From: Candidatus Eiseniibacteriota bacterium
GTDB taxonomy: Bacteria > Eisenbacteria > RBG-16-71-46 > CAIMUX01 > VGJL01
Reading direction: 5' to 3'
Assembly (NCBI GenBank): GCA_041946735.1
Contig: JBHGAY010000015.1
Location: 16,170-80,169 of the forward strand
Length of the DNA stretch: 64,000 nucleotides
Each line of letters starts with the position of its first letter. Position 1 is the first letter of the stretch. The translations under genes and the position numbers were made by a program. The notes below the pieces were generated by a model. That model saw only the letters and a program-made list of their open reading frames with translations, was not told where the DNA came from and searched no databases. Below are positions 1 to 38,779 of the stretch, piece by piece.

Positions 1-441
1 CGAGGACGGCTCGCAGGTTCGTGTTGATCATGTCGCGCGCGATCAAGGTTTCGTCGAGCGTCTTGTCGCCGATCAGATTCCTCAAGTTGGTCTGGGCGAG
101 GGTGGTGGCGGCGAGGCCGAAATGCTGCACCTCGAAGACGGCGCGCACCGGATCGACGACGCGGTAGTAGATCACCGCGTCGACGGTGACCGTCACGTTG
201 TCGCGCGTGATGACCTTCTGCGGTTCGACATTGATCACCTGCTCGCGCATGTCGACCTTGATCAGCTCGTCGACCAGCGGCGTCAGGAACGTGAGCCCCG
301 AGCTCGCCGTCGCGTGATACTTGCCGAGGCGCAGGACGAGCCCCTTCTCGTACTGCGAGACGATCCGCGCGCTCCTGGCGAGGATGATCAGGAGCACGAA
401 GGCGAAGAAACCGACGATGATCAGGGTCGCGTTATGGCTCA
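1..441 (-). CDS. SPFH/band-7 (stomatin-like) protein, N-terminal part; the gene continues past the window start
   Basis: The reverse complement from 441 reads MSHNATLIIVGFFAFVLLIILARSARIVSQYEKGLVLRLGKY...VTVDAVIYYRV, a typical stomatin/PHB N-terminus with one TM helix then the SPFH core. Its ATG overlaps the NfeD stop in an ATGA. Confidence 0.8.
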
Positions 442-909
442 TCACGCACCTCCGCCGGACGATCCCGGCTGCTCGGGGACGACGTAGAGGGTCACACCGT
501 CGATTCGCGTCACGCGCGCGCGCGATCCGGGCTCGATCGGACCTCGGACCCCCGCGTCGAGGCAGGCCCTCCATTCCTCCCCCTCGGTCCGGATCCGACC
601 GGGCCGATCGGAACTGATCGTCTCGACGACCTGCACGGTCTTGCCGAGGATCGCGTCGGTGTTCGTCGCCAGCCCGCCGCGGCCCCAGCGATTCCGGATG
701 CGGCGGCGGCCGGCGAAGACGTAGAGGAGCGAGAGGATTCCGCCTGCGGCGACGCCGATCGCCGCCGACTTCGTGAGCAGGCCGAGGACTCCGCCGAGGA
801 GGATCGCCGACCCGATCAAGAGGAAGTCGAAGCCGGTCACCGCGCCGAGGACGACCTCGATCAGGATCAGGACCGCTCCTGCGATGACGAGCAGCCAGTT
901 CACCATCAT
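442..909 (-). CDS. NfeD-family membrane protein, the stomatin operon partner
   Basis: 155 aa with two N-terminal TM helices and a C-terminal OB-fold-like segment, the standard short-NfeD architecture. It is translationally coupled to the downstream stomatin gene. Confidence 0.75.
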   Translation of the reverse strand: MMVNWLLVIAGAVLILIEVVLGAVTGFDFLLIGSAILLGGVLGLLTKSAAIGVAAGGILSLLYVFAGRRRIRNRWGRGGLATNTDAILGKTVQVVETISSDRPGRIRTEGEEWRACLDAGVRGPIEPGSRARVTRIDGVTLYVVPEQPGSSGGGA

Positions 910-1092
910 CGTCCCTCCTGTACAGGGGGTGGAAACTGGCGAAAACGCTACGGCCAGCCGGGAGGAGGGTCAAGCGAACTCGGCCACAATCGTTCGTGGC
1001 GAAGCGGCCTCGGGACTGGCAGAATCGGCGGGCAAGACGGCGAGAGGGCGCGCCTCGCGTGCGATTGCCGGGCGCATCCGAGGGAGGCTCCG

Positions 1093-1710
1093 ATGTCCCA
1101 TCCGTTTCTGATCGGCCGCCGGGTCCAGCTTCGCGCGATCGAGGAGGAGGACGCGCCGGCGTACGTCGAGTGGCTCAGCTCCCCGGACATGCGCGAGTTC
1201 CTGCTGATCCGCTTTCCGCAGACGACGCAGGGGGAGCGGGAGTGGATCGCGTCGATGCGCGGGAAGGAGAAGCCGCCGGCGAACCTGGTCTTCTCGATCG
1301 AACGCAAGAGCGACGGGCGTCACATCGGCTGCTGCGCCCTGCACCAGATCGACTGGGTCCACCGGCGGGCGATGACCGGCAGCTTCCTCGGGCCGCCGGC
1401 GTTGCGGGGCAAGGGGCTGGGGACCGAGGCGAAGAACCTGCTGCTCGACTACGCCTTCGGGGAGCTGGGCTTGCAGTCGATCTGGGCGATCGCCTTCGAC
1501 CGGAATGCCGCCTCGCGCCGGGCGCTGGAGAAGCAGGGATACCGGGCGAGCGGCGTGTTCCGGAAGGCGTTCCTGGTCGGCGGCGAGTGGAGCGACGCCG
1601 TCTACTTCGACCTCCTGCGCGAGGAGTGGGCGGCGATGCGCGGGGCGAGGAAGGGAGCGGGAGGCGGCCAGGCGGCGCGAAGCGGCAGGAGGTCGGCGGG
1701 CCGGGCCTAG
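1093..1710 (+). CDS. GNAT-family N-acetyltransferase (RimJ/RimL-like)
   Basis: 205 aa. An acetyl-CoA binding motif RGKGLGTEA follows a beta-strand core and there is a conserved WAIAFDRNAASRRALEKQGY segment. Codon usage is strongly GC3. Confidence 0.8.
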   Translation: MSHPFLIGRRVQLRAIEEEDAPAYVEWLSSPDMREFLLIRFPQTTQGEREWIASMRGKEKPPANLVFSIERKSDGRHIGCCALHQIDWVHRRAMTGSFLGPPALRGKGLGTEAKNLLLDYAFGELGLQSIWAIAFDRNAASRRALEKQGYRASGVFRKAFLVGGEWSDAVYFDLLREEWAAMRGARKGAGGGQAARSGRRSAGRA

Positions 1711-1811
1711 CTGGCCGAGCCCTGGACGGCGAGCGCTCGGCGGCGCGGATGCGGCGACCGCCCGACGGCGACGGAGGCGGCGACCGCCCGGCTGTCCGCG
1801 CGTTCGAAGCG

Positions 1812-2470
1812 ACCGGCTGCGGGTGCCGGAGGCGTTGTCCCCGCGTTCTAAGTGACCGGCCGCGGTGCTGGACGCGTTGTGCCCGCGTTTGAAGCGGCCG
1901 GCAGCGGCGCCAGACGTGCTGCTCCCGCCTTCGACGTCCCCGGCACCGCTGGGCGAGCCATGATGCGGGCGCATCCTCCGCCATGCAGCGGTGCCGCACC
2001 CACCTGCTCTCCCGCACGATCAGGCGCGCAGCGCCGCCGGACGCATCGTCCCCGCGCATCGGTCCTCACGCAGCGCCAGCGGCCCCAGGATCCCGCCGGA
2101 AGTCCCGCTCAGCAGCACTGCGGGACGTATTGTCCCCGCTTTCGGTGCGCCATGCAGCGCTGCGGGACCTATTGTTCCCGTTTTCGGTGGTGCCAGCAGG
2201 ACGAGTTGACACGAAAGAAAACGTAGAAAACCTGGCCTGCGCCACCGAATGTCCCATCGCAGGCACGGAAAAGGTCACCCGCGGCGCTGCGCGCCACGTA
2301 ATACGCAGGAACAGGGTGTCCCGCAGCGCCGGCGGAAGTGGTGAACACTCGGAACAGCTCGTCGCGCAGCGCCGGCGACCCCCCGAGACGCCGGAACAGC
2401 CCGTCCGCGCCTGCTGCAGGACGCATCGAAACTGGGGACAATGCGTCCAGCAGTCCTGCAGGCACCATTG
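1812..2470. repeat. Array of degenerate 40-45 bp tandem repeats built on a palindromic core GGGAC-N5-GTCCC, with at least 8 direct and 2 inverted copies (REP/BIME-like)
   Basis: Three near-perfect 43-bp tandem units lie at 1812-1940. Diverged copies sit near 2030, 2110, 2160 and 2310, and an inverted copy near 2440 (GGGGACAATGCGTCC). The array fills the 1.1-kb gap between the GNAT gene and the next CDS. Confidence 0.7.
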
Positions 2471-2855
2471 ATACGCGAGGATCGTGTTACAGACAGCGCG
2501 GCATGACGCACCGAAAGCGGGGACGATAGGTCCTGCAGTGGCGTCAAACGGGCTGTACCGACGCGCATCGTTTACAGCCCTGACAAGGGTCGGCTACACC
2601 GGCGTGTCGCGACGGGATGTCGGCCGGCCAGTATCTCCCTGTCGATCTCTCGACCGTTGCTCGCTCTCCTCCTCCCCACCCTTACGACATGACCGTTTAT
2701 GAACGACGAACGATACCGGTCTGTCTCGCAAGGATTGCCAACGAGTTACGGAAGTCGAAGAAGCACGGAGATCGCTTCTCGCAACCAATGGCCCACCTCG
2801 TGCGTAGGTAGGGTGGCAAGGGCGAAACCGGCCTCTTGCCGGAAAGGAGCAGGTC

Positions 2856-3599
2856 ATGAGACTGCCACTCATCAGCTGGGGCGCCGAAGGCATCCGTCGC
2901 GCGGGGATCTTCATCGTGGCGATGCTGAAGGCGTGGCTGGGCATCCCGGTCGAGATCGTGAACGCCTTCGTCGCCCGGCAGGACGGGCTGGTCGCCCGCA
3001 TCAACGAGTGCGGCCAGGCTGCCGACCGGACGGTGGAGGCCAAGGCGAACTGCAACTACCGGAAGGGGGAGCTGATCCGGTGCGTGCGGCGGCTCGCGAG
3101 CGAGCTGAAGCTGGCGTGCGGCAACAACGCCCGCGCACCCCTCTATCGGTTCTTCTTCCCGAAGGGGCTGCCTGCCTTCACACGGTCGACGATCGAGTCG
3201 GTCGTCGTGCAGGTGCAGGAGCTGCACACGAAGATCGCCCTCGATGGCTGCCCGCCCTCGGTGGCGCCGTTCGCGGAGCCCCTCGCGTCCCTGCGAAGCG
3301 ATCTCGAGCAGGCGGTCCAGGCACTGAAGGGCTGCCAGGAGGACGAGGCCCAGGCGAAGATCGCGTACGAGAACGAGAAGCTGCTGTGGATCGAGGCGTA
3401 CGCCCAGCTCTACCACCGACTGCGCGCGCACTTCGCCACCCAGCCGGAGCTGGCCGAGACCTTCTTCCCGGCGCCACGAATCCGCCGGCGGTCCTCGGAG
3501 GAGGCGCTGCTGGAGGGAGCGACTGCAAGCGATGCCGGAAACGGGAACGGGAGCGAAAGCACATCCGTGGCGGCGGCGCAACCGCCCGCGGCGGCGTAG
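2856..3599 (+). CDS. Hypothetical protein, 247 aa with 6 Cys
   Basis: Strong GC3 codon bias. AGGAG lies 7 nt before the ATG. No family recognised, and the N-terminal hydrophobic stretch may be a signal anchor. Confidence 0.6.
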   Translation: MRLPLISWGAEGIRRAGIFIVAMLKAWLGIPVEIVNAFVARQDGLVARINECGQAADRTVEAKANCNYRKGELIRCVRRLASELKLACGNNARAPLYRFFFPKGLPAFTRSTIESVVVQVQELHTKIALDGCPPSVAPFAEPLASLRSDLEQAVQALKGCQEDEAQAKIAYENEKLLWIEAYAQLYHRLRAHFATQPELAETFFPAPRIRRRSSEEALLEGATASDAGNGNGSESTSVAAAQPPAAA

Positions 3600-3767
3600 C
3601 GGCCGCCCGGGGACCAAGGCCGCATCGATACGAAAGGAGGGCCGCGTAGTACCCCGGCAGGAGCCGTAGCCGGGGAGTTTCGAGGAGTGACAGATGCGGA
3701 CGACATCGGGGCTGCGGTCCGTCACCGGATCGCAGCCCCTGTTCCTTGGGGCGGCCGTTGCAGCTGC

Positions 3768-4814
3768 TCACCGTCGCATCACGAGAATCCGGGTCGCGCG
3801 CGGGGATCCCTCGACGCGCGCGAAGTAGACGCCGGGCGAGACGGGCCGGCCGGCCCGGTCCTCCGTGTCCCAGAGGACCGCGGAGCTTTCGATCCTCCCC
3901 AAATCGCGAACGAGTCGCCCGGCGGCGTCGAACACCGCCATCTCCCGGCCGGTCGGAACAATCCCGTGGAAGCGGATCTCGGCCGCGCGCGAGACCGGGT
4001 TCGGGCTCACGCTTGTCTCGAACAGGTTCGAGCCGGGCAGATTCGCGGAGACGGCGGCCGGCTCGAGGAAGAAGAGGTCGAAGTGGAAGCCGCCGGATGC
4101 CGGGTTCTCCTCGTCCTCGAACGCCTGCCCGTAGCCGCTCGTGGAGAGCGACAGCCGGAAGTCCTCCACACCGAGAGGGATCGACTGATTCAGCTCGATC
4201 GTCTCCTCGCGGATCGAATGATAAAGGACTACACCGCTCACACTCCCGATCAGGCTGAAGTTCGCGACACCGTTGCCCGACGCGGAGAGAGTCCCGACGA
4301 TCTGGAGCTGCATCGGCGAGTCGACGAGGAACTCGGTGTCGAGCTGCGTGGCGCCGAGCGCCTCCGCGAAGTCGGCGGTGGTCCCGATCGTCGCCTCCGC
4401 CTGGAAGTCGGCGTCGACGGTGATCGAAACCTCGCCGATCTCGGAAACCTGCTGCGCCCACGAGTGCGCGCGCGCATCCTCGACGACCGCCTCGCTCTCC
4501 ACGCGTTCGTCGAAGGAGCCCGGGTCGGCGCTCTGCGTCTGGTCGTCGTGGAAGACGGTCTCCCCGTCGAGCGGATCGACGAGTGCGAAGCTCATAACCT
4601 GGCGGGATTGGGAGATGGGCTGCACGGCAGCCTCCGCTACAGGCGGATCGGCGATACCGAGCGGCAAGAGGAGGGCGCCGAAGATGGCCAGCGGAGACAG
4701 CGAGGAGCGGGGCGGGCAGGACGAGGTGGGCGAGGACGCTGCCGACGGGCTCAAAGGCGACGGCCCTGTCGTTGAAGTCGACATGGGGACCTCCCGAGGT
4801 TCACGGACGGACAC
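3768..4814 (-). CDS. Secreted protein with a C-terminal FlgD-Ig/T9SS-type sorting domain; start codon uncertain
   Basis: The C-terminus LWDTEDRAGRPVSPGVYFARVEGS...RILV matches the conserved C-terminal beta-sandwich sorting domain also found at the end of the C10 peptidase (26114..29521). An internal signal-like segment LAIFGALLLPLGIADPPVAEA suggests the true start is downstream of 4814. Confidence 0.6.
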   Translation of the reverse strand: MSVREPREVPMSTSTTGPSPLSPSAASSPTSSCPPRSSLSPLAIFGALLLPLGIADPPVAEAAVQPISQSRQVMSFALVDPLDGETVFHDDQTQSADPGSFDERVESEAVVEDARAHSWAQQVSEIGEVSITVDADFQAEATIGTTADFAEALGATQLDTEFLVDSPMQLQIVGTLSASGNGVANFSLIGSVSGVVLYHSIREETIELNQSIPLGVEDFRLSLSTSGYGQAFEDEENPASGGFHFDLFFLEPAAVSANLPGSNLFETSVSPNPVSRAAEIRFHGIVPTGREMAVFDAAGRLVRDLGRIESSAVLWDTEDRAGRPVSPGVYFARVEGSPRATRILVMRR

Positions 4815-4980: not shown

Positions 4981-6657
4981 CTACTTCGCCGCGGAGTCGA
5001 TGACCAGATAGATCGTGGCGAGCTGCGAGAGCACTCCGAGCGTCGTGAGGGCTGACTTCCATAGGTCGCGCTGCGGCTTCCGGGGAACCCATATCGTGTC
5101 GCCCGGGCCGAGGCGGTCCACCTTGCCCTTCTTGATCCACTGGCCGGTCAGGGCGCGCACGACGGTGACCTTCCCTTTGTCGGCCTGGTCCGTGTAGCCG
5201 CCGGAGCGTTCCACGTAGCGGTCGATCTCCTCGCCCGCCAGGAACGGCACGTTGCCGGGGCGGCGCACCTCGCCCGCGACCGTGACGAACGGCTGGATCT
5301 TTGGAACGACCACGAGGTCGCCGGGCCGTACGTAGACGTCCTGCGATCTGTCCCCCTCGAGAAAGAGAGCGGGGAAGTCCACCGAGAGGACCGGCCGGCT
5401 CGTCCGCAGCCTCATGGAGTAGTACTGGAACTCCTCCGGGGTCATCTCGCCGGTCGGAAGCTGGCGCAGGCGATCGTACTCCGGGTCGGGCACCGCCTCC
5501 GGAATGTCTCGCGTGACGTACGCCTCCCCGAGCGCGGCGGTCGGCGTGAACCCTCCGACGTCCGCGATGAGCTGTGTGAGCAGCAGGGAGTCGGTGGGGA
5601 GCGCGTGCATCCCCGGGTTTCGCACCTCGCCGATCACGCGGACGGTCCGGCCTTCGCTGCGCTCGACACGCGGCCGCACGAAGAGAAGATCGCCCGGGCC
5701 GACGAGCATCGCGCGGTCGGCCGGATTGCGCAGGTCGAGGAGTCGCCGCGGGCGCGGCGCATCGCGCGACCCGCCGGACTGCAGATACGCGGAATCGGGC
5801 ATCGCCTCCTCGTCGAGGCCATGCGCGAGGGCGAGGAGCGTTCCCACCGAGTCGCCCGGGACCACCTCGACCGGGCCGGGCTTGCGGACCGCGCCGCTCA
5901 CCACCGCGGTCGCGACGTACGGCGGGACCACGATACGGTCCCCCGCTTCGACGGTGGGATTGTGGATGAGCGCGCCGGTCGCCTCGAAGAGGGCGAGATC
6001 GACGGGGAGCACGTTGCCGTCCTGGCGAAGAAGGCGAATCGCGCGCTGCGAGCTGCGGCGAGGTTGCGCCGAGCCGGCGAGGCTCGTGAGAGGCGCGGCC
6101 GCCGCCTGCTCCAGCTCTCGCTGGCCGATCTCGAACGGCTCCGCCCGAGTGACGAGCTCCGAGGCGCGGTCGTTCGGCGTGGCTTGCTGCAGTCCCGGCT
6201 TTCGCACCTCCCCGAGGACGTAAGCGGTGATCGTCCGCAGCTCGAGCAGGTGCAGATCGACCTCTCCGGAGCGGTAGTAGCGGGACATCGTGTCGCGGAG
6301 GAGATCGTTCGCTTGCTCGATCGTAAGGCCTGCAACGTGCACGGACGGCCCCTCCGGAAGGATCAGGTATCCGTCGGGCGTGACGCGCAGCGTTCGTTCG
6401 ACGGGCGGGGTCGCGCGAACGCGGAGGCTCAACAGGTCTCCGGGCCCGAGACGGTAGGCCGAGCGGTCGACGGGTCCTTCCAGCGGTCGCGGGAGCGGAG
6501 TCGTCCCGAGCGTACCCGGCTGGCTGTCCCCCGCAGTCCCGGGCGGCGCCGCCGGCGTTTGCGCTCCTGCGTTGCCGGACAAAGTGCATGCGAGGAGGGA
6601 CGCAAGGAGCAGGAGGATCGTGCAGGCGCCTGCGCGCCACGGCCGCTTCTGGAACAT
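4981..6657 (-). CDS. wza: Polysaccharide export outer-membrane lipoprotein (Wza-like, multiple SLBB domains)
   Basis: MFQKRPW...LLLASLLAC is a lipoprotein signal. Repeated GPGD/PGDxL SLBB motifs follow, and the C-terminal amphipathic helix TLGVLSQLATIYLVI is present. The upstream part of the track ORF 4981..7482 is rejected. GGAGGG lies 6 nt before the ATG at 6657. Confidence 0.8.
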   Translation of the reverse strand: MFQKRPWRAGACTILLLLASLLACTLSGNAGAQTPAAPPGTAGDSQPGTLGTTPLPRPLEGPVDRSAYRLGPGDLLSLRVRATPPVERTLRVTPDGYLILPEGPSVHVAGLTIEQANDLLRDTMSRYYRSGEVDLHLLELRTITAYVLGEVRKPGLQQATPNDRASELVTRAEPFEIGQRELEQAAAAPLTSLAGSAQPRRSSQRAIRLLRQDGNVLPVDLALFEATGALIHNPTVEAGDRIVVPPYVATAVVSGAVRKPGPVEVVPGDSVGTLLALAHGLDEEAMPDSAYLQSGGSRDAPRPRRLLDLRNPADRAMLVGPGDLLFVRPRVERSEGRTVRVIGEVRNPGMHALPTDSLLLTQLIADVGGFTPTAALGEAYVTRDIPEAVPDPEYDRLRQLPTGEMTPEEFQYYSMRLRTSRPVLSVDFPALFLEGDRSQDVYVRPGDLVVVPKIQPFVTVAGEVRRPGNVPFLAGEEIDRYVERSGGYTDQADKGKVTVVRALTGQWIKKGKVDRLGPGDTIWVPRKPQRDLWKSALTTLGVLSQLATIYLVIDSAAK

Positions 6658-6659
6658 CC

Positions 6660-7655
6660 TCATCCCTCCCGGCTCTCCCGGCTCGATCCGGCGGCGGCTT
6701 TGCCTGCCTGCGGCGCGGTCGCGCCCCCTGATCCCGTCTTTGGCCCCCGCGCAGCTTCCCACACTTTCAGGACTTCGAGAAACCCATAGATCCCGAGCAT
6801 CGAGCTGGTTGCGATGCCGATCCTGCCCTCGCGCCAGCCGCTCAGGCGCAGGTAGGACCAGAGGAAGAGGCGGACTCCCGCCCAGATGGCGATGAGGCCG
6901 GTCCGGGAGCGCGCCGCCTTGAGGCCCATGGCGGAGGTGCCGGGCGAGGTGCCGTCCAGGATGCGCTGCGCCTCGCGCGTCGTGTAACGGTTCGTCTTGC
7001 GGATGAAGTCGCGGAGGGTGGGATACGGCTCGTGGAGGATCGGCGCGGCAAGGCGTCCCACCGTCCCGTCGACCTCGAGCGGCTCGTGGATGGCGTGCAA
7101 ACGGTAGCGACCCCTGCCGGAGCGGAAGAGGCGGATCAGCCGGCGATGCCGGCCCCAGTAGCCGTAGCTCGGCCAGGTCCCGAGCACCGAGGTCCAGAAC
7201 GGGATCGCGAAGGCCGCGTCGCTCGGCTGCGACGCGACCGCCGCCCGCATCTCGGCGGCAAGCTCCGGCGAGACGCGCTCGTCCGCATCGACCTGCAGGA
7301 TCCAGCCCGCGGGGATCTGCGGGAACGCCCAGTTGAGATTGCCGTGCACCGGGTCGATCTCGGGCGGCAGCACGTGCGGAACGATCCACGAGGTGAAGCC
7401 CGCGGCGATCTCGACGGTCCGGTCGGTCGAGCCGTTGTCGACCAGGAGGATCCGGTCGGCCCAGAGGAGGGAGCGGAGGCATCGCTCGATGTTCGCTTCT
7501 TCGTTCAGGGCGAGGACGACGGCGGTGATCGCGTGGGGATCGGTGGCCGGGCCGCCCGGCAGCGGGAGCGAATCCGACGCCGGTGCCCGCGACGGTGCGG
7601 GTGCGGACGGCATGCCGCCGGGAACGTTCAGCGGAGCGGAAGCGCCCGCGCCCAT
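6660..7655 (-). CDS. Glycosyltransferase family 2; start 7655 or 7613
   Basis: AITAVVLALNEEANIERCL...LLVDNGSTD...QVDADE is the GT2 DXD-type fold. Its stop overlaps the wza start. Confidence 0.7.
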   Translation of the reverse strand: MGAGASAPLNVPGGMPSAPAPSRAPASDSLPLPGGPATDPHAITAVVLALNEEANIERCLRSLLWADRILLVDNGSTDRTVEIAAGFTSWIVPHVLPPEIDPVHGNLNWAFPQIPAGWILQVDADERVSPELAAEMRAAVASQPSDAAFAIPFWTSVLGTWPSYGYWGRHRRLIRLFRSGRGRYRLHAIHEPLEVDGTVGRLAAPILHEPYPTLRDFIRKTNRYTTREAQRILDGTSPGTSAMGLKAARSRTGLIAIWAGVRLFLWSYLRLSGWREGRIGIATSSMLGIYGFLEVLKVWEAARGPKTGSGGATAPQAGKAAAGSSRESREG

Positions 7656-8776
7656 TCGTAGGTCTCCAGGGTTGCCTGCACGCATCCCGAGATCGTATAG
7701 GAGCGAGCCCAGCGCTCGTGCCCGGCGGCGCCGAGAGCCGCGCGCCGCTGCGGATCGAGCGCGAGGCGAAGGACCGCCTCCGACATCGCCGCCGGATCGC
7801 GCGGTTCGACGAGCAGCCCCGTTTCTCCGTCGGCGACGATCTCCGGGATCCCGCCGGCGCGCGTCGCGACGATCGGCAGCCCAGACGCCATCGCCTCGAG
7901 CAGCACGATGCCGAGCGCCTCCTGGCGGGAGGGGAGAACGAAGAGATCGGCAGCCGCCATCAGTCGGGCGAGATCGCGCCGGAAGCCGAGCAGGCGGAGC
8001 CGCTCGCCGGCGGGAGAGCCGTCCGCCGCCGATCGGAGGCGCGCATCGAGCGGCCCGCGACCGGCCATCAGGAGATAGAGATCCGGGGCATCGGCGCGGC
8101 GGACCGCTCGCTCGAACGCCTCCCAGAGGTCGAGCGTCCCCTTCGTCTCATCGAGCCGTCCGGCGAAGAGCAGGAGGATCGCCGGCTGCGCGATCTTCAG
8201 CTCCTCGCGGACCTCGCGCCGCGCCGCCGCCCGCTCGACGGAGTTGCCGTCGACGCCGTGCGGGATCACGCGGATGCGCTCGGGCGGGAAGCGGTAGACG
8301 GAGGCGACGGCGCGAGCGACCACCTCACTCGGCGCGATGTAGAAGCGGGTGCGGCGCGCGCCGGCCCGCTCGATCCACAGACGCGGCCCGGTGCGCTGGT
8401 AGGGGGACCGTAGAACGTGGCCGTGCTCGGTCGCTGCGATCGCCATCGCGGGAACGCGCGGGAGAAGGGCGCGCAGCCAGGGGACCGAGACGTGGTCGTG
8501 GAGGAGCGCCGGGCGGAGCGCGCGCACCGCGCTCGCCACGGCCCTGGGCCCGCGCGGGTCGCGGCCGGTCGTCAGCCCGCAGCAGCGCACACCGGCTCCG
8601 GCGCTGCGCAGGATATCGCCCGCTCCACCGTCCCTCGAGAGATAGAGGACGCCGCAGCGCACGCCTTGCCGCGCCATCCCGACCGAGAGATCGAGGACGT
8701 GACGCTCGGCGCCGCCGCCGGTCCCCTCCCACAGGACGTGGAGGACGTCGAGAGCGCGAGGCGCCTCGGTGCTCAT
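7628..8776 (-). CDS. Glycosyltransferase family 4 (GT-B)
   Basis: 382 aa starting MSTEAPRALDVLHVL. The C-terminal domain carries the E-X7-E motif and FVLPSRQEALGIVLLEAMASGLPIVAT. Its ATG overlaps the Wzx stop in an ATGA. The N-terminal part of the track ORF 7628..10372 is rejected. Confidence 0.85.
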   Translation of the reverse strand: MSTEAPRALDVLHVLWEGTGGGAERHVLDLSVGMARQGVRCGVLYLSRDGGAGDILRSAGAGVRCCGLTTGRDPRGPRAVASAVRALRPALLHDHVSVPWLRALLPRVPAMAIAATEHGHVLRSPYQRTGPRLWIERAGARRTRFYIAPSEVVARAVASVYRFPPERIRVIPHGVDGNSVERAAARREVREELKIAQPAILLLFAGRLDETKGTLDLWEAFERAVRRADAPDLYLLMAGRGPLDARLRSAADGSPAGERLRLLGFRRDLARLMAAADLFVLPSRQEALGIVLLEAMASGLPIVATRAGGIPEIVADGETGLLVEPRDPAAMSEAVLRLALDPQRRAALGAAGHERWARSYTISGCVQATLETYEWARALPLR

Positions 8777-10302
8777 CCGCGGATCCGCTGCATCGCGGTT
8801 CGGGCGAACGGATGCCTCAGCATCCAGAGAACGAGGAAGTAGGCGAGGAGCCCGGCGATGCCCGCGGCCGCGAGATCGAGAAGGGCGTCTCCCCATCCCG
8901 CGAGCGGGACTGCCGGAAGCGCGCGAAGCAAGACGGCCGCCGCCACCGCCGACGTCGCCGCCCCCGCCAGCGCCGCCCCCGCCCCTCGTGCCGCCGCGCT
9001 CCACAGGCTCGCCGGCAGGCGCTTGTGCACGATCGCGAGCAGCACGACACAGGAAGTCCAGAGGCCGGTAGCCACGCCGATCGGGACCCACAGCAGCCCG
9101 AAGCGGAGCGCGAGCAGGTTCGCGATTCCGGTCACCACGAGCTGGATGCCGCCGGCCAAGGCGAGCGGCCGCGTGCGCTGCGTCGCGTAGGAGAAGTCGC
9201 GGAGCAGGTAGTAGACGGCGACCGGCAGCACGCCGAGGACACCGATACGCAGCAGCGTTGCTACCCCGTGGACGTCCTGCGCGTCGAAGAGGCCGCGCTG
9301 GAACGCCAGCTCCACAATCTGCGGGGCGAGGAGCAGCACGAACGCGGTGATCGGCAGGAAGAGGAAGAGGTTCAGGTCGAGGCCGCGCGCGAGCGTGTGG
9401 GCGCGGTCCGCCCCGCCGGCCGATCGATCCCGCGACATCGTGACGTAGATCGGAAGCGCCACCGACGCGGCGAGGACGGTCTGCAGCGGGGCGATCAGCT
9501 TGCGCGAGTAGGCGAGCATCGAGAGGCTCCCGGCCGGCAGGAAGGAGAGGACCGCGCGCTCGATGTAGCCCGCCGCCTGCACGAGGAAGACGCCGAGCGC
9601 GACCGGGGCGACGAGCGTGCCGACGCGCCGCAGCTCCGGCGGCAGCAGCGGGTGTCGCAGCAGCGCGCCTACCGGCCAGCCTGGCAGCAGCAGGACGAGG
9701 AGCAGCGCCTGCGCGAGCGCCGCGCCGTCGAGCGCGAACATCCAGCCGCGGTACGCCATCGTGGGCGGGAAGGCGAGCAGTACGGCCGTCTGGAGGAGGT
9801 TTCCGGTCAGCATGACGAGCGCGGGGACCGCGTAGCGGTGGTGCGCGTTGTGGATCGTCTTCGCGAACTCCGCCAGCTCGGTGAAGAAGAGCGCCGGCGC
9901 GACCGCGCGCAGCAGGCGGGCGCCCGTCTCGATCTGCTCCGGACCGAGGCCTGGGGCGACCATCCGCAGGATCGCGACGGGCCAGAGCACCACGGCGAGC
10001 GACAGCGCGCCGGCCGCGAGCGCCGTGGCGCGGAGCCCCGAGCTGCGCAGGCGCGCGGCGCGCTCCCCGCTTGCGTCCTCCTCGAGCGCGTGCCCGTAGA
10101 CCGACACGAACGCGGCGAACGTCTCCCGGACGAGCAGGATCGTCGGTAGGAAGAGGAGCACCGCCTCGGCGTAGACGACGAGGTCGGCGCTGCGCGAGAC
10201 CCCGAAGCGCGCGGCGATCGAGGCGTTGCGCGCGAGAGCGGCGAGGTTCGCGGCGACCGAGAGCGCGGTCACCGTCCCGATGCGGCGTCCGAGGAGGCTC
10301 AC
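8773..10302 (-). CDS. wzx: Wzx/MurJ-type polysaccharide (O-unit) flippase, MOP superfamily
   Basis: 509 aa with about 12-14 predicted TM helices and typical MviN/Wzx composition. Its GTG start overlaps the wzy stop in a GTGA. Confidence 0.75.
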   Translation of the reverse strand: MSLLGRRIGTVTALSVAANLAALARNASIAARFGVSRSADLVVYAEAVLLFLPTILLVRETFAAFVSVYGHALEEDASGERAARLRSSGLRATALAAGALSLAVVLWPVAILRMVAPGLGPEQIETGARLLRAVAPALFFTELAEFAKTIHNAHHRYAVPALVMLTGNLLQTAVLLAFPPTMAYRGWMFALDGAALAQALLLVLLLPGWPVGALLRHPLLPPELRRVGTLVAPVALGVFLVQAAGYIERAVLSFLPAGSLSMLAYSRKLIAPLQTVLAASVALPIYVTMSRDRSAGGADRAHTLARGLDLNLFLFLPITAFVLLLAPQIVELAFQRGLFDAQDVHGVATLLRIGVLGVLPVAVYYLLRDFSYATQRTRPLALAGGIQLVVTGIANLLALRFGLLWVPIGVATGLWTSCVVLLAIVHKRLPASLWSAAARGAGAALAGAATSAVAAAVLLRALPAVPLAGWGDALLDLAAAGIAGLLAYFLVLWMLRHPFARTAMQRIRG

Positions 10303-11912
10303 GGCCGGCCTCCCTCCGGCGCGGCGAGCGCCGAGCGCGCGGGAAGCGGCGCACCGGACGGCAGCGGCTCACCGGCCGGTTGCGCCGCGCCTGCCGGCAA
10401 AGGCGTTCCCACCGGCAGCGCCGCCCGCGATCCCTCCTCGACCTCCCGCTCGTACAGCCGCCGCCACGCGAACCCGGTCAGCATCCAGAACAGCAGGTTC
10501 GACGGGTTCGTGTTCATCGGGCCGTTGGAGAGATTCGCGATGAGCAGCACCGCCACCGCGGATCCCGCGATGACCCCGAACCGGCGCTCGTCAGGGTCGC
10601 GGCTGCGCGCGAGCCTCCCCAGCGCGATCAGCGGAAGCAGATGGACCGAGAAGAGGGCGAGCCAGCCGATCCATCCCGCCTCGAGCGCGGTCGTCAGGTA
10701 GAAGTTGTCGGTCGGGATCCCCCCCTCGGCGCTCGACCGCATCCCGAGCTTGTAGTAGACGAGGAGGTTCGCCGTCGATCCGATGCCTCGTCCGATCACC
10801 GGCTCATCCCAGAGCAGCTTCCATCCGCGCCGGTTCTCCTCCAGACGGAAGACGAGCGAAGTCGAGACGCCCTTCTGCAACGTGAACGACGTCATGACCC
10901 GGTTGCGGATCAGATCCCCGAATCGGATCCATCCGATCCCGGCGACGAGAAGGGTGACGATCAGAAACCACAGCAGGAGCTTCCCGCTCCTCTGGCGCAC
11001 GACGAGGATCAAGACGAACAGGAAGACCGCGGAGATCATCGTCATGTTGTAGGTCAACAGCAGCGCGTAGCCGAGCAGCGCGAGGCCGAGGACCACGATC
11101 GCGCGCTTGCCCCTGCTGCTGGCCGCGCCGAGCAGGTGCAGGGAGAGCGCGATCCCGAGGAAGGAGAGCGCCGCGACCGAGGACTGATCGTCGAGGAACG
11201 AGAAGAGCCGCTGGTACAGCTTCCCGCTGATCGGATCGACCGCCACGAACGCGACCATGCCGGTCTCCAGGCTCAGACCGAAGCGGAGCAGGGTCTCGAC
11301 CGGGACGAACGACTGGATGACCGCTCCGAGCGCGACCGCGCAGCAGAGGCCGAAGACCCACCACAGGAATCGCGGTACGCGCGTCATGCCGCCCGCCGCG
11401 TCGTACGCGATGAAGATCAGGAGCGGGTAGAGGAGATAGCCGATCGTTGCGTTGACGATCTGGAGGGCCGGGACGCCGCGAGTCGCCGTGACGGCCGCGA
11501 GCATCCCGAAGATTGCCGCGGCCCCGCCGTAGACGGCGAGCGGAACTCGCGCGCCTCGCCAGTGAGGGGAGCGGTCGGCTGCGCGCGTCAGCAGCCAGAT
11601 CGGCAGGATCGCCAGGAAGAAGATCCCTTTGAACCATCCGAGAGGGAGGTGGACGATCCGCGCGAAAAAGGGCGCGAAGGTAGCGTACAGCAGAAAGAAC
11701 CCGAGGAAGAGCCCCGGGCGGAGGAGCAGCAGGAACGCGCCGGCCGCGGCGACCGCGCTCGCGGCGAGCAGGATCAGCCCTCCGAACGGCGGCTTCCAGA
11801 CCATTCCGGCGATGAAGAGGATCGTGCCGAGCCCGAGACCGGGAAGGAGGTAAGCCGCCGGCGCCGGGATGCGGACAATGGGGGTTTCGAGGGAGCGGAC
11901 GCCCGGAGTCAT
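10299..11912 (-). CDS. wzy: O-antigen ligase/polymerase family membrane protein (Wzy-like)
   Basis: 537 aa and polytopic. A large periplasmic loop contains the R...G motifs of the Wzy_C/O-antigen ligase family, and there is a Pro/Ala-rich C-terminal tail. Confidence 0.7.
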   Translation of the reverse strand: MTPGVRSLETPIVRIPAPAAYLLPGLGLGTILFIAGMVWKPPFGGLILLAASAVAAAGAFLLLLRPGLFLGFFLLYATFAPFFARIVHLPLGWFKGIFFLAILPIWLLTRAADRSPHWRGARVPLAVYGGAAAIFGMLAAVTATRGVPALQIVNATIGYLLYPLLIFIAYDAAGGMTRVPRFLWWVFGLCCAVALGAVIQSFVPVETLLRFGLSLETGMVAFVAVDPISGKLYQRLFSFLDDQSSVAALSFLGIALSLHLLGAASSRGKRAIVVLGLALLGYALLLTYNMTMISAVFLFVLILVVRQRSGKLLLWFLIVTLLVAGIGWIRFGDLIRNRVMTSFTLQKGVSTSLVFRLEENRRGWKLLWDEPVIGRGIGSTANLLVYYKLGMRSSAEGGIPTDNFYLTTALEAGWIGWLALFSVHLLPLIALGRLARSRDPDERRFGVIAGSAVAVLLIANLSNGPMNTNPSNLLFWMLTGFAWRRLYEREVEEGSRAALPVGTPLPAGAAQPAGEPLPSGAPLPARSALAAPEGGRP

Positions 11913-12033
11913 CGCTCGCTCGCCTCCGCGGGCGATGGCGCCTCCGCGCGCGGTGTCGCCGCGCCACCGCGCTTCGCCCCGTCGCGGCGCTTCGCTCCGC
12001 CTCGGACGGAAGCGGAGGCGGCGAGCCGCACCT

Positions 12034-13176
12034 TCACGCGGCAGCCCGGCGGGCGAGGACGCGCATCACCCGGCACTGATTGCGCAGCACGCGCTCCGCA
12101 TCGTAGCGCCGCGACGCCCGCAGCCCCTCCCGCCCCAGCGACGCGCGCAGCGCCTCGTCCTCGAGGATTCGCGAGAGCGCTCGATAGAGCGCGTTCACGT
12201 CGCCGGGCGGAACCAGCAAACCCTGCCGGCCGTCCTCGATCAGGTCGGTGTTCCCCGGGACGCGCGTCGCCACGATCGGAGTCCCGGACGCGAGCGCCTC
12301 GAGCACGATCTTCGGATTCCCCTCAGTCACGAGCGAGGGCAGGACGAGAACGAGCGCCGAGCCGAGATGCTGCGCGACCTCGTCCTGCGGGCGGCTGCCG
12401 AGGAATCGCACGCGCCGCCCGGGGACTTCTCGCTCCGCCTTGCGCTCCAGGCTCTCGTGCTCCTCCCCGGTGCCGAGGATCAAGAGCTCGACCCCGTCGC
12501 GCTCACGCGCGATCCGGCCGAATGCGTCGATCAAGAGGCCCACTCCCTTGCCGGGATGCAGGCGGCCGGCGTAGAGGATCGTGGGGCGCCGGTTTGGAGC
12601 GGGCCTGAACATTGCCCGATCGACCGGATTGGGAACGACGATCGCACGCCGTCCGTAGCCTCGTGTCGCCACCGAGGCGAGCAGGGGAGTTGTCGCGATC
12701 ACGAGGTCGGCGGCGAGGAGGCAACGGCTCTGCATGCGCGAGGCGAAGAGCTTCTTCGCGCCGCCGTAGTAGGCCTGCGTCGTCCGCGCCCAGTCGTAGC
12801 GGAGGTCGACCAGGAACTTGCCCCGGCCGCCCCCGCGGCGCTTCATTTCGGGAAGGACCGCGAGGTTCGAGCTGAGGACCCGCACGAGTCCCGACATGCG
12901 GTCGGCCGCCCGCACGAGGCGGCGATAGTAGATGAGGACCTCGAGCGGCCGCGGCAGCGCGGCGGGCAGTCCCGCGAGCAAGGGACGATGGTCCACCCCG
13001 AGCTCCACGCTGAACGAGCGAGCGTCGGCGCTGTAGAGGTCGACCGCGAACTCGTGGCTATAGGCGGCGAGCGTCTTCTTGAAGTAAGGCCCCATCCCGA
13101 GCCGCAGGATGTCCGCCACCGAGGCGTCGGTGCTCAAGACCAGATGGAGAGGAAGCTTTCGGACCGCCGGATTCAT
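12034..13176 (-). CDS. Glycosyltransferase family 4
   Basis: 380 aa starting MNPAVRKLPLH. GT4 C-terminal motifs VLPSLVTEGNPKIVLEALASGTPIVAT are present. Its ATG overlaps the Wzz stop. The N-terminal part of the track ORF 12034..14085 is rejected. Confidence 0.85.
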   Translation of the reverse strand: MNPAVRKLPLHLVLSTDASVADILRLGMGPYFKKTLAAYSHEFAVDLYSADARSFSVELGVDHRPLLAGLPAALPRPLEVLIYYRRLVRAADRMSGLVRVLSSNLAVLPEMKRRGGGRGKFLVDLRYDWARTTQAYYGGAKKLFASRMQSRCLLAADLVIATTPLLASVATRGYGRRAIVVPNPVDRAMFRPAPNRRPTILYAGRLHPGKGVGLLIDAFGRIARERDGVELLILGTGEEHESLERKAEREVPGRRVRFLGSRPQDEVAQHLGSALVLVLPSLVTEGNPKIVLEALASGTPIVATRVPGNTDLIEDGRQGLLVPPGDVNALYRALSRILEDEALRASLGREGLRASRRYDAERVLRNQCRVMRVLARRAAA

Positions 13177-14426
13177 CCCCGGCGCGCCTCGGCCCGCCCC
13201 TGCCCGCCGTCCTCCCGCCTCGACGAGCGTCTCAGTCTCGCGATCTCCTCGGGGAGCGGACTCTCGACGAGGGCGGCGGCCAGCAGCGCGACGAGGGCTC
13301 CGGACAAGAGCCCGGCGACGACCATCAGCTTCCGCTTCGGGGAGAATCGCTCCTCCGGCGGGACTGCGGTGTCGAGCACCTGCACGGTCGGGGTGTCGCG
13401 CGCCTCCTGGATCTTCGCCTGGTAATACTGCTGGTTCAGGTAGGTCTGCAGGAGAAGCTGCGCCTGCAGCTCCCGCTCGTAATCGGCGAGCTGGAGCGCC
13501 AGGTCCGGGATGCTGGACGTCGCGAGCGACGTGGCCGGGTCGGACGACCCCGGCCGCGATCCTTCCATCTTGGCGATCGCCTCCCGGAGCTGGGCGATCT
13601 CGTTCTCGAGATTGGTGACGACCGGGTTGTCGGGAGTCATCGATTGCCGCGCGATCCCGAGATCGACCTCTTTCGCCATCAAATCGCTCTTCAGCTTGGC
13701 CGATCCCTCGATCAGCACCTTCGTCTGGACGTCGAGCGCGACCGCGCCGTGCTGCCGCTGGAATCCGGCGACTGTCTCGCCCAGTCGGCGGATCGACGCG
13801 TTGTTCTCGTCGAGCTGGCGCTCGAGGTAAATGCGCGTCTGCTTGGCCCGCGAGAGAGACTTCTCGCGGTTGACCGCGTCGAGCTCCGCGACCAGATCGT
13901 TCGCCGTGTCGGCCGCCTTCGCTCGCGTGCGGGCGTCGACCGAGGGTGAGGTGAACCAGCCGGTGTCCATGCGCACCGAGATCTCGATCACACCGGCATC
14001 GTTGACCGAGACGTCGGTCGCGCCGCGCAGCAACGCCACCGCCTGTTCCATTGCGAGCGGCGCCGCCGGATGCGGGATTCGCCACCAGTCGATCAGGTCC
14101 TGCTTGCGGATGACCGCTTCCATCACCGTCCGGCTCTTCAGGATCTCCTGGAAGAGCTTCGCCGTGGACATCGACTCGTCGCGGATGCCGAGGAGCCCGA
14201 GCGAGGCCTCGAGCCCCGGCGTGCCGCTGAAGCCCCCCGCGCTCGAGCTGACCGGCGGAAGCAGGCTCGTCCGCGCCACGTAGGCGCGGGGCATGACGAG
14301 CGAGAGGACGATCGAGAGCAGGAGGAACCCGGCGACGACGCCGAAGATGAGTTTCCGATGCCTCCAGGGCACCTCCAACATCGCGCCCAGGCTCCGTCCG
14401 GCGGGACGTCCTGCATGTTCCGTCAT
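13173..14426 (-). CDS. Polysaccharide co-polymerase / chain-length determinant (Wzz/GumC-like PCP, no kinase domain)
   Basis: TM helices at both ends flank a long periplasmic coiled-coil region. This is the PCP topology. Confidence 0.75.
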   Translation of the reverse strand: MTEHAGRPAGRSLGAMLEVPWRHRKLIFGVVAGFLLLSIVLSLVMPRAYVARTSLLPPVSSSAGGFSGTPGLEASLGLLGIRDESMSTAKLFQEILKSRTVMEAVIRKQDLIDWWRIPHPAAPLAMEQAVALLRGATDVSVNDAGVIEISVRMDTGWFTSPSVDARTRAKAADTANDLVAELDAVNREKSLSRAKQTRIYLERQLDENNASIRRLGETVAGFQRQHGAVALDVQTKVLIEGSAKLKSDLMAKEVDLGIARQSMTPDNPVVTNLENEIAQLREAIAKMEGSRPGSSDPATSLATSSIPDLALQLADYERELQAQLLLQTYLNQQYYQAKIQEARDTPTVQVLDTAVPPEERFSPKRKLMVVAGLLSGALVALLAAALVESPLPEEIARLRRSSRREDGGQGRAEARRG

Positions 14427-14589
14427 CGTTCGGCCCCCGCGCTAGGCGCCCGGCCGGATCCGATCGAGCGGGCGGACGGAATCCTGGCGGACGGACTCCG
14501 ACCGGCGACGATTCGATCCGGTTCGAGGCGTTGCGAAGTTGAGGTTTCCGAGGTTCACGAGGTGCGGACGGCTCCTCCTTGCGGAGCGG

Positions 14590-15933
14590 TCAATCCTCAT
14601 GTCGCGAGGATACACGGGCATGCCCGGCCGGTCCATGCCGCCCGGCCGGTGTGCCTGGCGTGCGACGCGGTCCTTTCGCGGCCCCGGAGAGCAGGAGCGG
14701 CCGGCCGGCCCGCGCGGCCGCCCGCACGAGCCCGCGATAGAGCCGCTCGTACTCCTCCGCCACGCGATCCCACGAATAGGCGGCGAGGGCGCGGGCGCGC
14801 GCCGCGGCGCCGAGGCGCTCGCGCGCGTCCCGGTCGCCGGCCAGGGCGGTCATCCTCCGTGCGAGGTCCTCCGCATCACCGAGATCGAAATAGGCGATCG
14901 CGTCGGATCCGACGTCCTCGATTTCGGGGATGCGGGTCGCGATCGTCGCGCATCGCGCCGCCATCGCCTCGAGCAGGACGAGCGGCATCCCCTCAGATTC
15001 CGATGGCAGGACGAAGAGGCGGCAGCCGGCGTAGAGGCTCCACAGCTCGTCGCCGAATCGGTATCCGGCGAACCGGATCCCGGGATCGTCGCCGGCCTCG
15101 GCGCGCAACTTCGCCGCGTACTCCGGGGCGTGGTTGTGATCTCCGACGAGGACCAGCGGAAGAGGGAGCCGCGCGATCCGATAGGCGCGGATCAGGTGCT
15201 CCACCCCCTTCTGCGGGACGAGCCGGCTCACGCACAGGAGGTAGCCGTCGCGCTCGAGTCGGAGGTCGGCGGGCAGTGGGATCGCGCCGACTCCGCCCGC
15301 GTCTCCGCCGTCGCCGATCCAGGCGGGAGGGTCGACGCCGTTGGGAATATGGACGACGCGCCGCCCGGTCGCCTCGCGCACGAAGCGAGCCTGCGAGCGC
15401 GAGACGGAGGTGAGCGCGGTCGGCGCGGCGGTGGCGGGGCGGAGCAGCGCGCGCAGCAGCGCCTTGTCGAGGCGGTTCCACTTGCCGAGCCCCCACTCGA
15501 AGCCGTGCAGGTGCAGGACGACCGGGATGCGCGCGAGCCGGCCGACTCCGGCGAGGACGCCGTTGGGATAGTTGTGGAGGCCGATCACGTCGGGCCGTTC
15601 GCGGGCGGCCGCGGCGAGTCCGACGAAGGTGTGAGAGAGCGTGTCGAGTCGCTTCGTGCGGACCGCCGTCTCGCGGCGCAGCTCCATCCCGCGCCACGTG
15701 TCGAGGCCGGCGGGCGTGTAGTGGCTGCGGCAATGGACGACGACGCGATGGCCACGGGCCGCGAGGCGGGCGCCGATCTCCTCGACCGCGTGCTCGACGC
15801 CGCCGAACGTCGCGGGGATCCCCTTGGCGCCGACGAAATGGATCCGCAGGGGCCGCTCCCGCGCGGTCCGCGCCGGCTCGTTCTGTCCGGCGCCGTCCTG
15901 TCCAGCGCCGTCCCGTACCGCTTCGACTTCCAT
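14590..15933 (-). CDS. Glycosyltransferase family 4, the first gene of the polysaccharide operon; N-terminus uncertain
   Basis: LRIHFVGAKGIP...GVEH N-domain and a C-domain with FVLPSESEGMPLVLLEAMAARCATIAT. Upstream is a 270-bp divergent intergenic region. Confidence 0.8.
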   Translation of the reverse strand: MEVEAVRDGAGQDGAGQNEPARTARERPLRIHFVGAKGIPATFGGVEHAVEEIGARLAARGHRVVVHCRSHYTPAGLDTWRGMELRRETAVRTKRLDTLSHTFVGLAAAARERPDVIGLHNYPNGVLAGVGRLARIPVVLHLHGFEWGLGKWNRLDKALLRALLRPATAAPTALTSVSRSQARFVREATGRRVVHIPNGVDPPAWIGDGGDAGGVGAIPLPADLRLERDGYLLCVSRLVPQKGVEHLIRAYRIARLPLPLVLVGDHNHAPEYAAKLRAEAGDDPGIRFAGYRFGDELWSLYAGCRLFVLPSESEGMPLVLLEAMAARCATIATRIPEIEDVGSDAIAYFDLGDAEDLARRMTALAGDRDARERLGAAARARALAAYSWDRVAEEYERLYRGLVRAAARAGRPLLLSGAAKGPRRTPGTPAGRHGPAGHARVSSRHED

Positions 15934-16018
15934 CCCGACCCAGGCTACTCCGGCGCGTGGCGACGCGGAACCCTTGTCCCGCGTGGCACCGAGCGGCTAC
16001 GCGGGGCGCGCGGCCCCC

Positions 16019-16075
16019 GCGCTCGGAAGCGCCCGGAAGCGCCCCGGAGCGCTCGGAAGCGCTCGGGAGCGCGCG
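16019..16075. repeat. Short tandem GC-rich repeats (CTCGGAAGCGC-like, about 5 copies) in the divergent promoter region between the polysaccharide operon and the asnB-like gene
   Basis: gctcggaagcgcccggaagcgccccggagcgctcggaagcgctcgggagcgcg seen directly in the sequence. Confidence 0.5.
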
Positions 16076-16205
16076 GGCGCGCCCCGAAGCACGGTCCCAT
16101 CTGCTGCATCCGCGCGCGCCGCGATGCTAGAGTCCACGCGATCCGTGACGTGACCGGATCGAGGAAGCGATCGATCGCGTCCGTCGGGAGGACAGGAGGG
16201 GCCGA

Positions 16206-22968: not shown

Positions 22969-23030
22969 CCGGATGTAGGGGCGCTGCCGGACGCGCCGGA
23001 CGTAGGGGTGCCACAGGACGTAGGGGCGCC
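22969..23030. repeat. Three direct copies of a roughly 17-bp motif CCGGACGTAGGGGYGCC upstream of the PDZ-protein gene
   Basis: ccggatgtaggggcgc / ccggacgtaggggtgcc / caggacgtaggggcgcc seen directly. The copies lie about 250-310 bp upstream of the minus-strand start at 22716. Confidence 0.5.
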
Positions 23031-38649: not shown

Positions 38650-38725
38650 GGGCAGGCCGGCTCTCCTAGCACGCCGGCTCTCCGTGCGGGGTGCTCTCCT
38701 GGCAGGCCGGCTCTCCGTGCAGGCC
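38650..38725. repeat. Direct repeats GGCAGGCCGGCTCTCC / GCCGGCTCTCCGTGC (2-3 copies) in the 310-bp region upstream of the activase gene
   Basis: Seen directly at about 38652, 38672 and 38702. Confidence 0.45.
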
Positions 38726-38779
38726 GCTCCGGCTCGCCTTCGCGGCTGGCTTTCCCGGCTCGTTTCCGTGGCTCGCTTC

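Follow-up and report, generated by a model that had tools for sequence, protein, structure and literature searches.

We describe an array of 42-nt units in a 64-kb stretch of DNA (64,000 nt in all, hereafter the window) from a metagenome-assembled genome (MAG) of Candidatus Eiseniibacteriota. The array lies upstream of a gene encoding a 247-aa protein of an uncharacterised family, and a tract with the same spacing of 42-43 nt, built from different sequences, recurs upstream of distant members of that family. The array is probably an undescribed gene-linked DNA element and not a group of ordinary scattered repetitive extragenic palindromes (REPs). The reading that we prefer, and regard as close to an even bet, is that it forms a non-coding, phased series of predicted dyad binding sites that would act in cis on the adjacent gene. 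A literature search on 42-bp bacterial intergenic repeats returned nothing relevant.

The window is GC-rich, and the array occupies a gap of 1145 nt between a GNAT gene (1093-1710, Pfam Acetyltransf_3) and the next coding sequence (2856-3599); an independent gene call likewise left this gap without open reading frames (ORFs). An earlier annotation of the same DNA, made from its letters and here called the sequence-only reading, had reported a repeat array in a gap of about 1.1 kb. The tandem array is real, but it does not end at 2470 as reported: it runs from ~1775 to ~2544-2586, ~0.8 kb in total. Tandem Repeats Finder gives a period of 42 nt at 1793-1934, occasionally 43, and a repeat-pair search recovers direct-repeat families spaced 42, 43, 84 and 127 nt, as well as long inverted matches between 1866-2195 and 2308-2540. 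The unit lengths first given, 40-45 bp or 43-mers, therefore need correction. The lag-42 autocorrelation of the gap is strong (Table 1), and in a sliding autocorrelation, at the threshold used, the gap is the sole long-period periodic tract of the window.

Printed in a 42-nt register, the array resolves into three parts, namely ~10 units on the plus strand, a centre of 53 nt and ~7 units in reverse complement. The sequence-only reading had recognised both orientations, but its counts (at least eight direct and two inverted copies) were too low. The unit consensus is GCAGCGCTGCGGGACGTATTGTCCCCGCTTTCGGTGCGCCAT. Units are 50-83% identical among themselves, and the first ones, which had been taken for three near-perfect copies, measure 67-81%. 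A profile hidden Markov model (HMM) of the unit detects six units on the plus and five on the minus strand at E <= 0.011; the rest are degenerate yet in register, strongly so across 1944-2111 of the left arm. In the right arm, R2459 and R2544 are 80-83% identical to L2112, with the degenerate R2502 sitting between them. The stretch 2116-2162, within L2112/L2154, is 89% complementary to 2494-2540, and the resulting long-range inverted repeat encloses 331 nt. GC content drops to ~0.62 in the 200 nt of 2101-2300, around the centre. The unit profile finds no copy outside 1775-2544 in the window, and none in a further ~13 kb from this MAG (contigs L003, L004 and L012; L numbers denote loci of the protein family). 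Matches to GGAC-N5-GTCC number four in the window, all within the gap. The three GGGAC-N5-GTCCC cores that had been quoted are present, and there is a fourth (Table 1).

The gene downstream of the array has the coding signature of a real gene, with GC by codon position of 0.68/0.48/0.90. The AlphaFold2 (AF2) model of its product, with a predicted local distance difference test (pLDDT) score of 90.7, is a helical bundle. The protein has no match in Pfam, PADLOC or PHROGs and none of a Rep-like or winged-helix kind, and the same three databases gave noise only on 38 family members. Its closest homolog is a 60%-identical paralog on contig L003 of the same MAG, with no other close one. A full HMMER search yields ~120 distant homologs of 220-270 aa that are ~20-29% identical to the window protein. 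These include at least three further paralogs in this MAG and, by source names, members in a second Eisenbacteria MAG (GCA_041390305.1), in Latescibacterota, in Planctomycetota and in Acidobacteriota. Five or more copies of the family are present in this Eisenbacteria genome, among them ACE15D_09860, ACE15D_19250, ACE15D_15085, ACE15D_11955 and ACE15D_13200. A word-indexed protein search matched only paralogs of the same MAG; alignment-based scans of GTDB genomes, Joint Genome Institute (JGI) metagenomes and viral contigs found no relatives of the protein, and tblastn left the family unmatched in 72,556 plasmids and 50,697 phage records.

We computed the autocorrelation of the DNA upstream of family genes at lags 5-129 and report the top lag for each locus (Table 1). 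A 42-43-nt periodic tract lies within ~1 kb upstream of the family gene wherever the upstream DNA is long enough, weakly so at one locus (L015). Flanks away from the family gene carry no 42/43-period tract in the nine family loci scanned. Apart from one with a period of 16 nt, the other periodic tracts in these loci repeat at multiples of 3; most are inside called genes, and they lie well away from the upstream region of the family gene. In L013 (11-12 units), L016 (16 units) and the left arm of L003 (10 units) the units keep one exact 42-nt register with unrelated spacers, and the arrays of L013 and L016 reach to ~20-130 nt from the start codon. Unit profiles match their own locus only, and copy number is constant between assemblies from different samples.

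At L009 the tract (~2860-3500) lies under a called 199-aa ORF (2756-3355, minus strand) whose GC by codon position is 0.67/0.72/0.74, versus 0.65/0.51/0.90 in the neighbouring family gene; this ORF is probably a miscall. A 136-aa ORF is likewise called on the L003 array (1-408, minus strand). The short-read (Logan) contigs L004-L008 end 170-366 nt upstream of the family gene, and L012 ends at 447 nt, at a point that clearly falls within its array. The contigs L007 and L008 come from two samples and share exactly the same end position. Such contig ends may reflect assembly breakage at repeats.

Comparison with the paralogous locus L003 is consistent with common descent. The L003 contig starts inside its array and carries at least 10 direct 42-nt units, ~8 inverted units, a leader that can be aligned with that of the window, and the gene. 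Its unit sequence differs from that of the window, and the two profiles do not cross-match. One stretch of the window array, 2254-2297, is the best conserved with L003 (481-524; 84% over 44 nt, blastn E = 4e-9; local score 45 vs a shuffle maximum of 32). The leaders match colinearly at window 2675-2700 / L003 899-924 and at window 2780-2880 / L003 1002-1103, and in both loci ~420 nt separate the innermost right unit from the leader. Furthermore, the best-conserved units of both arrays are those innermost in the left arm and outermost in the right arm, where they form an inverted repeat of 47-58 nt that encloses 316-331 nt (339-396 vs 713-770 in L003). Colinear arrays with shared relic units, together with profiles that recognise their own locus only, fit common descent followed by locus-specific divergence. 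The centres of the two arrays carry TTGACA in opposite orientations, which prompted us to consider an invertible promoter. We rejected it, since between the long-range repeats the two loci run colinearly and without any change of orientation.

Units differ from array to array, and most arrays show a short dyad-like core (Table 1); outside the cores, spacers keep their length and not their sequence. Paired cells make up 65% in the window and 66% in L017, compared with 34-47% and 26-39%, respectively, when the partners are slid, well above the slid partners in both cases, indicating that the dyads are real.

Table 1. Coordinates of the array, leader and gene in the window, with dyad cores, leader boxes and upstream periodicity at related loci.
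Locus	Feature	Position	Strand	Basis or detail
Window	Left arm, ~10 head-to-tail 42-nt units	1775-2195	+	Tandem Repeats Finder, repeat families, register print, nhmmer
Window	Left-arm register starts	1775, 1817, 1859, 1901, 1944, 1986, 2028, 2070, 2112, 2154		
Window	Innermost left units L2112 and L2154, best-conserved ("young")	2112-2195	+	Repeat pairs, identity matrix
Window	Centre between arms, AT-richer than flanks, with TTGACA at 2206-2211	2196-2248	.	Sequence, GC scan
Window	Right arm, ~7 units in reverse complement	2249-2544	-	Inverted-repeat pairs I1-I9, nhmmer minus-strand matches, identity matrix
Window	Right-arm descending starts	2544, 2502, 2459, 2417, 2375, 2332, 2290		
Window	Innermost right-arm unit, GGCACGGAA..GGTC...CGCGGCGCTGCGCGCCAC	2254-2297	+	blastn, local alignment with paralogous locus L003
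Window	Outer right units R2459 and R2544, young subfamily like L2112	2418-2544	-	Repeat pairs, identity matrix
Window	Dyad core GGACGCATCGTCC	2039		
Window	Dyad core GGGACGTATTGTCCC	2122		
Window	Dyad core GGACAATGCGTCC	2436		
Window	Dyad core GGACGATAGGTCC	2521		
Window	Leader motif CTTACGACATGACCGTTTAT (20-nt box)	2681-2700	+	Alignment with L003, sequences of L004 and L012
Window	Proximal leader (second box, hairpin, ribosome-binding site)	2796-2849	+	Alignment with L003
Window	Conserved box CCTCGTGCGTAGG	2796-2808		
Window	Hairpin GGCAAG...CTTGCC	2815-2840		
Window	Ribosome-binding site (RBS) GGAAAGGAG	2841-2849		
Window	Gene for 247-aa protein (modelled helical bundle), array partner; NCBI hypothetical protein ACE15D_09860	2856-3599	+	Coding signature, AF2
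L003	20-nt box	903-924		
L004	20-nt box	181-203		
L012	20-nt box	243-264		
L003	Second box, hairpin and RBS	1017-1075		
L009	Hairpin and RBS, by eye	3680-3728		
Window	Cores			GCAGC|GCTGC and GGGAC-N5-GTCCC
L003	Cores			TGCATGCA and GTCACGCGCGTGAC
L012	Core			CGCCATGG-like
L013	Core			GCGCCGAA-CC-TTCGGCGC
L016	Core			GTGTCGAG-N2-4-TCGACAC
L017	Core			ATCGCCAAGT-N11-ACTTGGTGAT
L009	Core			Short, conserved, GACGGACTGC
Window	Periodicity, this MAG			Lag 42, z = 9.0
L003	Periodicity, paralog of this MAG			Lag 42, z = 14.2
L012	Periodicity, paralog of this MAG; contig begins inside array			Lag 42, z = 8.3
L013	Periodicity, 752-kb contig, protein identity ~24%			Lag 42, z = 7.3 (lag 84 at 7.6)
L016	Periodicity, second Eisenbacteria MAG			Lag 42, z = 5.3
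L017-L021	Periodicity, Acidobacteriota MAG			Lag 42, z = 4.1-8.4
L009	Periodicity			Lag 43, z = 4.2
L015	Periodicity, second Eisenbacteria MAG			Lag 43 (weak), z = 3.3

We infer the mechanism of the array from these sequence features. A period of 42 bp corresponds to about four helical turns and would place all sites on one face of the DNA. A dimeric protein with sequence specificity would bind the dyads cooperatively and assemble into a higher-order complex that covers the DNA upstream of the gene. In the window and in L003, ~330 bp could be looped out by the matching inner-left and outer-right units, and the complex would control the downstream gene or use it in cis. Several lines point this way. 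A spacing of 42-43 bp retained with free sequence, one period not divisible by three, half-sites without compensatory change and the lack of strand asymmetry suggest selection at the level of DNA for sites on the same face. Neither the window nor L017 has covariation beyond column shuffles, and this, with the absence of strand asymmetry, is what conserved half-sites, and not selected hairpins, would be expected to show. F-plasmid sopC offers a formal parallel, with repeats of similar length that each carry an inverted repeat bound by SopB (PMC3177203). Since the array lies upstream of the gene, and close to its start in L013 and L016, the simplest role would be control of the gene or a nucleoprotein complex that includes it. 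This comes close to one possibility named by the sequence-only reading, a multi-operator array for a dimeric regulator, with the regulator itself still putative. Speculatively, the binder may be the product of the adjacent gene or some other regulator; were it the adjacent product, the locus-specific unit sequences of the paralogs would be explained.

Four points weigh against binding sites of this kind. A Pfam scan of part of the window proteins found no regulator gene among the neighbours. The covariation tests, made on 7 and 17 short sequences, had low power. A 21-nt sub-periodicity is absent in the window (z = 0.4), and degeneracy may have left many units without function as sites.

A more ambitious proposal extends the phased binding sites to the protein, and we hold it possible while being inclined to doubt it. 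It sees a two-part module in which a phased 42-bp dyad array is joined to a helical-bundle protein that would recognise the array of its own locus, either as DNA or as RNA. The paralogs, five or more in this genome, would have diverged in specificity, and the module would be conserved from Eisenbacteria to Acidobacteriota. It would be a self-specific nucleoprotein system with a role in autoregulation, DNA organisation or conflict.

An action of the array as RNA, in which the dyads would be hairpins, is unlikely but the most probable of the alternatives; the sequence-only reading had named a structured RNA array among its options. The array could be a long structured leader, a protein sponge, or a repeat RNA that binds the adjacent product as type III antitoxins do. 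Its tandem repeats of a few tens of nt stand directly upstream of a protein gene, abutting it in L013, L016 and L017, much as toxI repeats lie upstream of a protein gene (PMC8860590). The unit sequences are locus-specific, and some changes on the unit strand are G-U-compatible. Folding, which the sequence-only reading had suggested for the units as a check, places 2100-2560 far beyond shuffles on either strand (z = -8.7 and -9.0), with a long hairpin on each. With inverted arms this is a trivial outcome, and it favours none of the models. In contrast, RNAalifold recovers next to no common structure from the L017 units, pairing there is equal on both strands (65.7% and 61.4%), and with no covariation beyond shuffles the pair counts lend an RNA no support. 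Strict conservation of spacer length would be needless for an RNA sponge, and the gene-nearest units of the window are inverted, so that a single transcript would join sense and antisense units. A scan found no terminator between array and gene, and the whole window gave no Rfam match at gathering thresholds. Repeats of the toxI type are few and near-identical, lie on the gene strand and are followed by a terminator, and their toxin is an endoribonuclease. Here, 10-19 diverged units (50-80% identical) occur in both orientations beside a protein modelled as a helical bundle, not as a ToxN-type endoribonuclease. In repeat identity, strand, terminator and toxin fold, the array does not fit a type III toxin-antitoxin system. 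Less likely still is a neutral minisatellite, a functionless tract resembling variable-number tandem repeats (VNTRs) that slippage and gene conversion maintain upstream of genes. The many degenerate units would suit it, as would the young subfamilies within each array, which suggest ongoing homogenisation, and no partner protein was found. Minisatellites such as mycobacterial interspersed repetitive units (MIRUs) and VNTRs are intergenic tandem repeats of 40-100 bp in GC-rich genomes, dispersed over dozens of loci and variable in copy number between strains. Here, in contrast, each locus has its own unit, copy number does not vary between assemblies from different samples, and indels are avoided over 10-16 diverged units. 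The 42-43-nt period stands upstream of the same family although its proteins are only ~23-28% identical across lineages. A neutral tract is not expected to keep such a period, and a minisatellite is therefore hard to reconcile with its retention in divergent lineages and with the lack of indels.

The three remaining explanations are weaker. A plasmid-type centromere or an iteron origin, relic or active on an integrated element, would be a special case of the DNA-site model, and we consider it improbable. In form the array resembles F-plasmid sopC, whose 12 direct 43-bp repeats each hold a 16-bp inverted repeat bound by SopB (PMC3177203): both are non-coding tandem units of 42-43 bp (about four helical turns) with an inverted-repeat core, present in a dozen or more copies (10-19 here). 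Direct and inverted sets of sites around a less GC-rich centre also fit, as do the variable or defence-like neighbourhoods of L013 and L007. However, no ParA/ParB, Rep or integrase gene adjoins any array. The arrays differ from sopC in being apparently chromosomal, several per genome, with units 50-83% identical in both orientations upstream of an unrelated helical-bundle gene. The NCBI contig of the window is 130 kb long and carries housekeeping and polysaccharide genes; the window locus itself, apparently chromosomal, lies beside a polysaccharide cluster. Five or more copies per genome would be odd for an origin or a centromere, and, as said above, plasmid and phage records lack the family. 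Iteron arrays (P1 incA/incC, lambda ori, RK2 oriV) likewise present sites on one helix face, sometimes in both orientations, beside the gene of their binder and with replicon-specific sequences. Iterons measure 17-22 bp with ~22-bp spacing, and they come with a winged-helix Rep gene, DnaA boxes and an AT-rich unwinding element. Here the units are of 42 bp, the adjacent protein is not Rep-like and GC in the 200 nt around the centre falls only to ~0.62; DnaA boxes were not searched. Partner genes and, apparently, the replicon do not fit this explanation. A coding repeat of 14 residues, present or recent, is very improbable and largely refuted. In its favour, 42 nt equal 14 codons, one plus-strand frame is stop-free across the L013 and L016 arrays, and ORFs were called on the L003 and L009 arrays. 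The G-R-[IV]-V-P-A-F frame noted by the sequence-only reading exists, and so does its TAA (1849-1851), in the second unit and not the first. That reading had itself argued against coding, and rightly. GC by phase is flat (left arm 0.75/0.70/0.72, right arm 0.70/0.66/0.61, vs ~0.67/0.48/0.90 in real genes), also in the L009 array ORF, and the information content by phase (1.18/0.89/1.08) reveals no third-position pattern. Junctions of 43, 85 and 127 nt break the frame, stops occur in all six frames of the window array, unit translations share no peptide between loci (by eye), and the stop-free frames of the related arrays lie within first-order Markov expectation. With a period of 43 in L009 and junctions of +/-1 in the window, these cannot be codon repeats. 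Least probable of all is the cluster of REPs or bacterial interspersed mosaic elements (BIMEs) originally proposed, that is, dispersed palindromes gathered here by chance. The array does share intergenic position, GC-rich imperfect palindromes, regular arrangement and stem-loop-capable units (65% pairing) with such elements. REPs usually exceed 100 copies per genome, are dispersed, and alternate in orientation within BIMEs (PMC2817692). Here, in contrast, 10 units run head-to-tail before 7 of opposite orientation, the unit is confined to one locus within the window and the other contigs covered, paralogous loci have different units and the array goes with one gene family. In copy number, dispersal and pattern of orientation the array does not fit. 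The element is real and unusual; the first label, REP-like, is not supported, and its details were mis-measured. A CRISPR array was also considered and rejected: the whole 42-nt unit repeats, the cores are degenerate, and no cas-like gene is found among the neighbours scanned with Pfam.

The leader between array and gene is conserved as well. A 20-nt box, CTT[AG]CGACAT[GC][AC]CCGTTTAT, recurs almost unchanged upstream of four paralogs of this MAG whose proteins are as low as 20% identical, and a pattern search of the window gives one match vs none expected. By eye it is unlike sigma-70, sigma-54 or typical extracytoplasmic function (ECF) promoters, and it may be a family-specific promoter or operator. 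Closer to the gene lies a second conserved box, of pattern CTCGTGCGTA[GT]G, and after it a small hairpin that directly precedes the RBS. This arrangement of hairpin and RBS is comparable, by eye, in L003 and in the distant member L009. Scans for sigma-70 promoters and terminators in the gap and in L003 returned nothing above chance. We also compared the conserved boxes by eye with sigma-54 and ECF promoters and rejected that interpretation, because invariant GG or GC positions are lost in some paralogs. Genes for ECF-type sigma factors lie within a few kb of family genes at three unrelated loci (L005 1346-1984, L009 2069-2668 and L016 9162-9719), which may hint at regulation of the family.

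The neighbourhood of the window locus comprises GNAT, NfeD and polysaccharide-export genes. A 348-aa protein without Pfam match is encoded convergently with the family gene (3768-4814, minus strand); its C-terminal ~60 residues presumably resemble a FlgD-Ig/T9SS-type sorting domain. It is followed by a polysaccharide biosynthesis and export cluster (4981-18059) with Poly_export/SLBB, a MurJ-like flippase, Wzy_C, Wzz/GNVR, a GT4 glycosyltransferase and an asparagine synthase-like amidotransferase. Four other short tandem repeats in the window (22969-23020, 27 nt x 1.9; 16019-16090, 10 nt x 7; 53215-53288, GACGGC x 12; 38652-38726, 17 nt x 4.5) are unrelated to the 42-nt unit. The sequence-only reading had called a repeat at 22969-23030 similar to the array, but it is a separate 27-nt duplication without match to the unit profile (E = 3.9). 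At L013, the family gene has defence-island-like neighbours (1-3432 and 5896-7212), among them an AAA_15/AAA_21/DUF3696 ATPase, RelA_SpoT, an SNase nuclease and a BrnT toxin. Upstream of the L013 array, the stretch 3920-4254 holds a 40-nt inverted repeat whose arms (3920-3959 / 4174-4213) are 90% complementary; a palindromic duplication of 22 nt, GCCCGCGGGCATGCCCGGGCAT, lies at 4209-4250. Within this pair, an exact 31-mer repeat is found near the point at which the NCBI contig L014 ends.

Probably spurious ORFs are called on the arrays (L003 1-408, L009 2756-3355), and short-read contigs tend to end a few hundred nt before the family genes, in one case clearly inside an array; such elements are therefore probably under-represented in public data. 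Computing lag autocorrelation upstream of the members of a protein family offers a simple route to them. If the link between array and gene holds, this would be a non-coding element defined by its spacing and not by its sequence, kept beside one uncharacterised family across very distant bacteria, and it would provide the first functional handle on that protein family.

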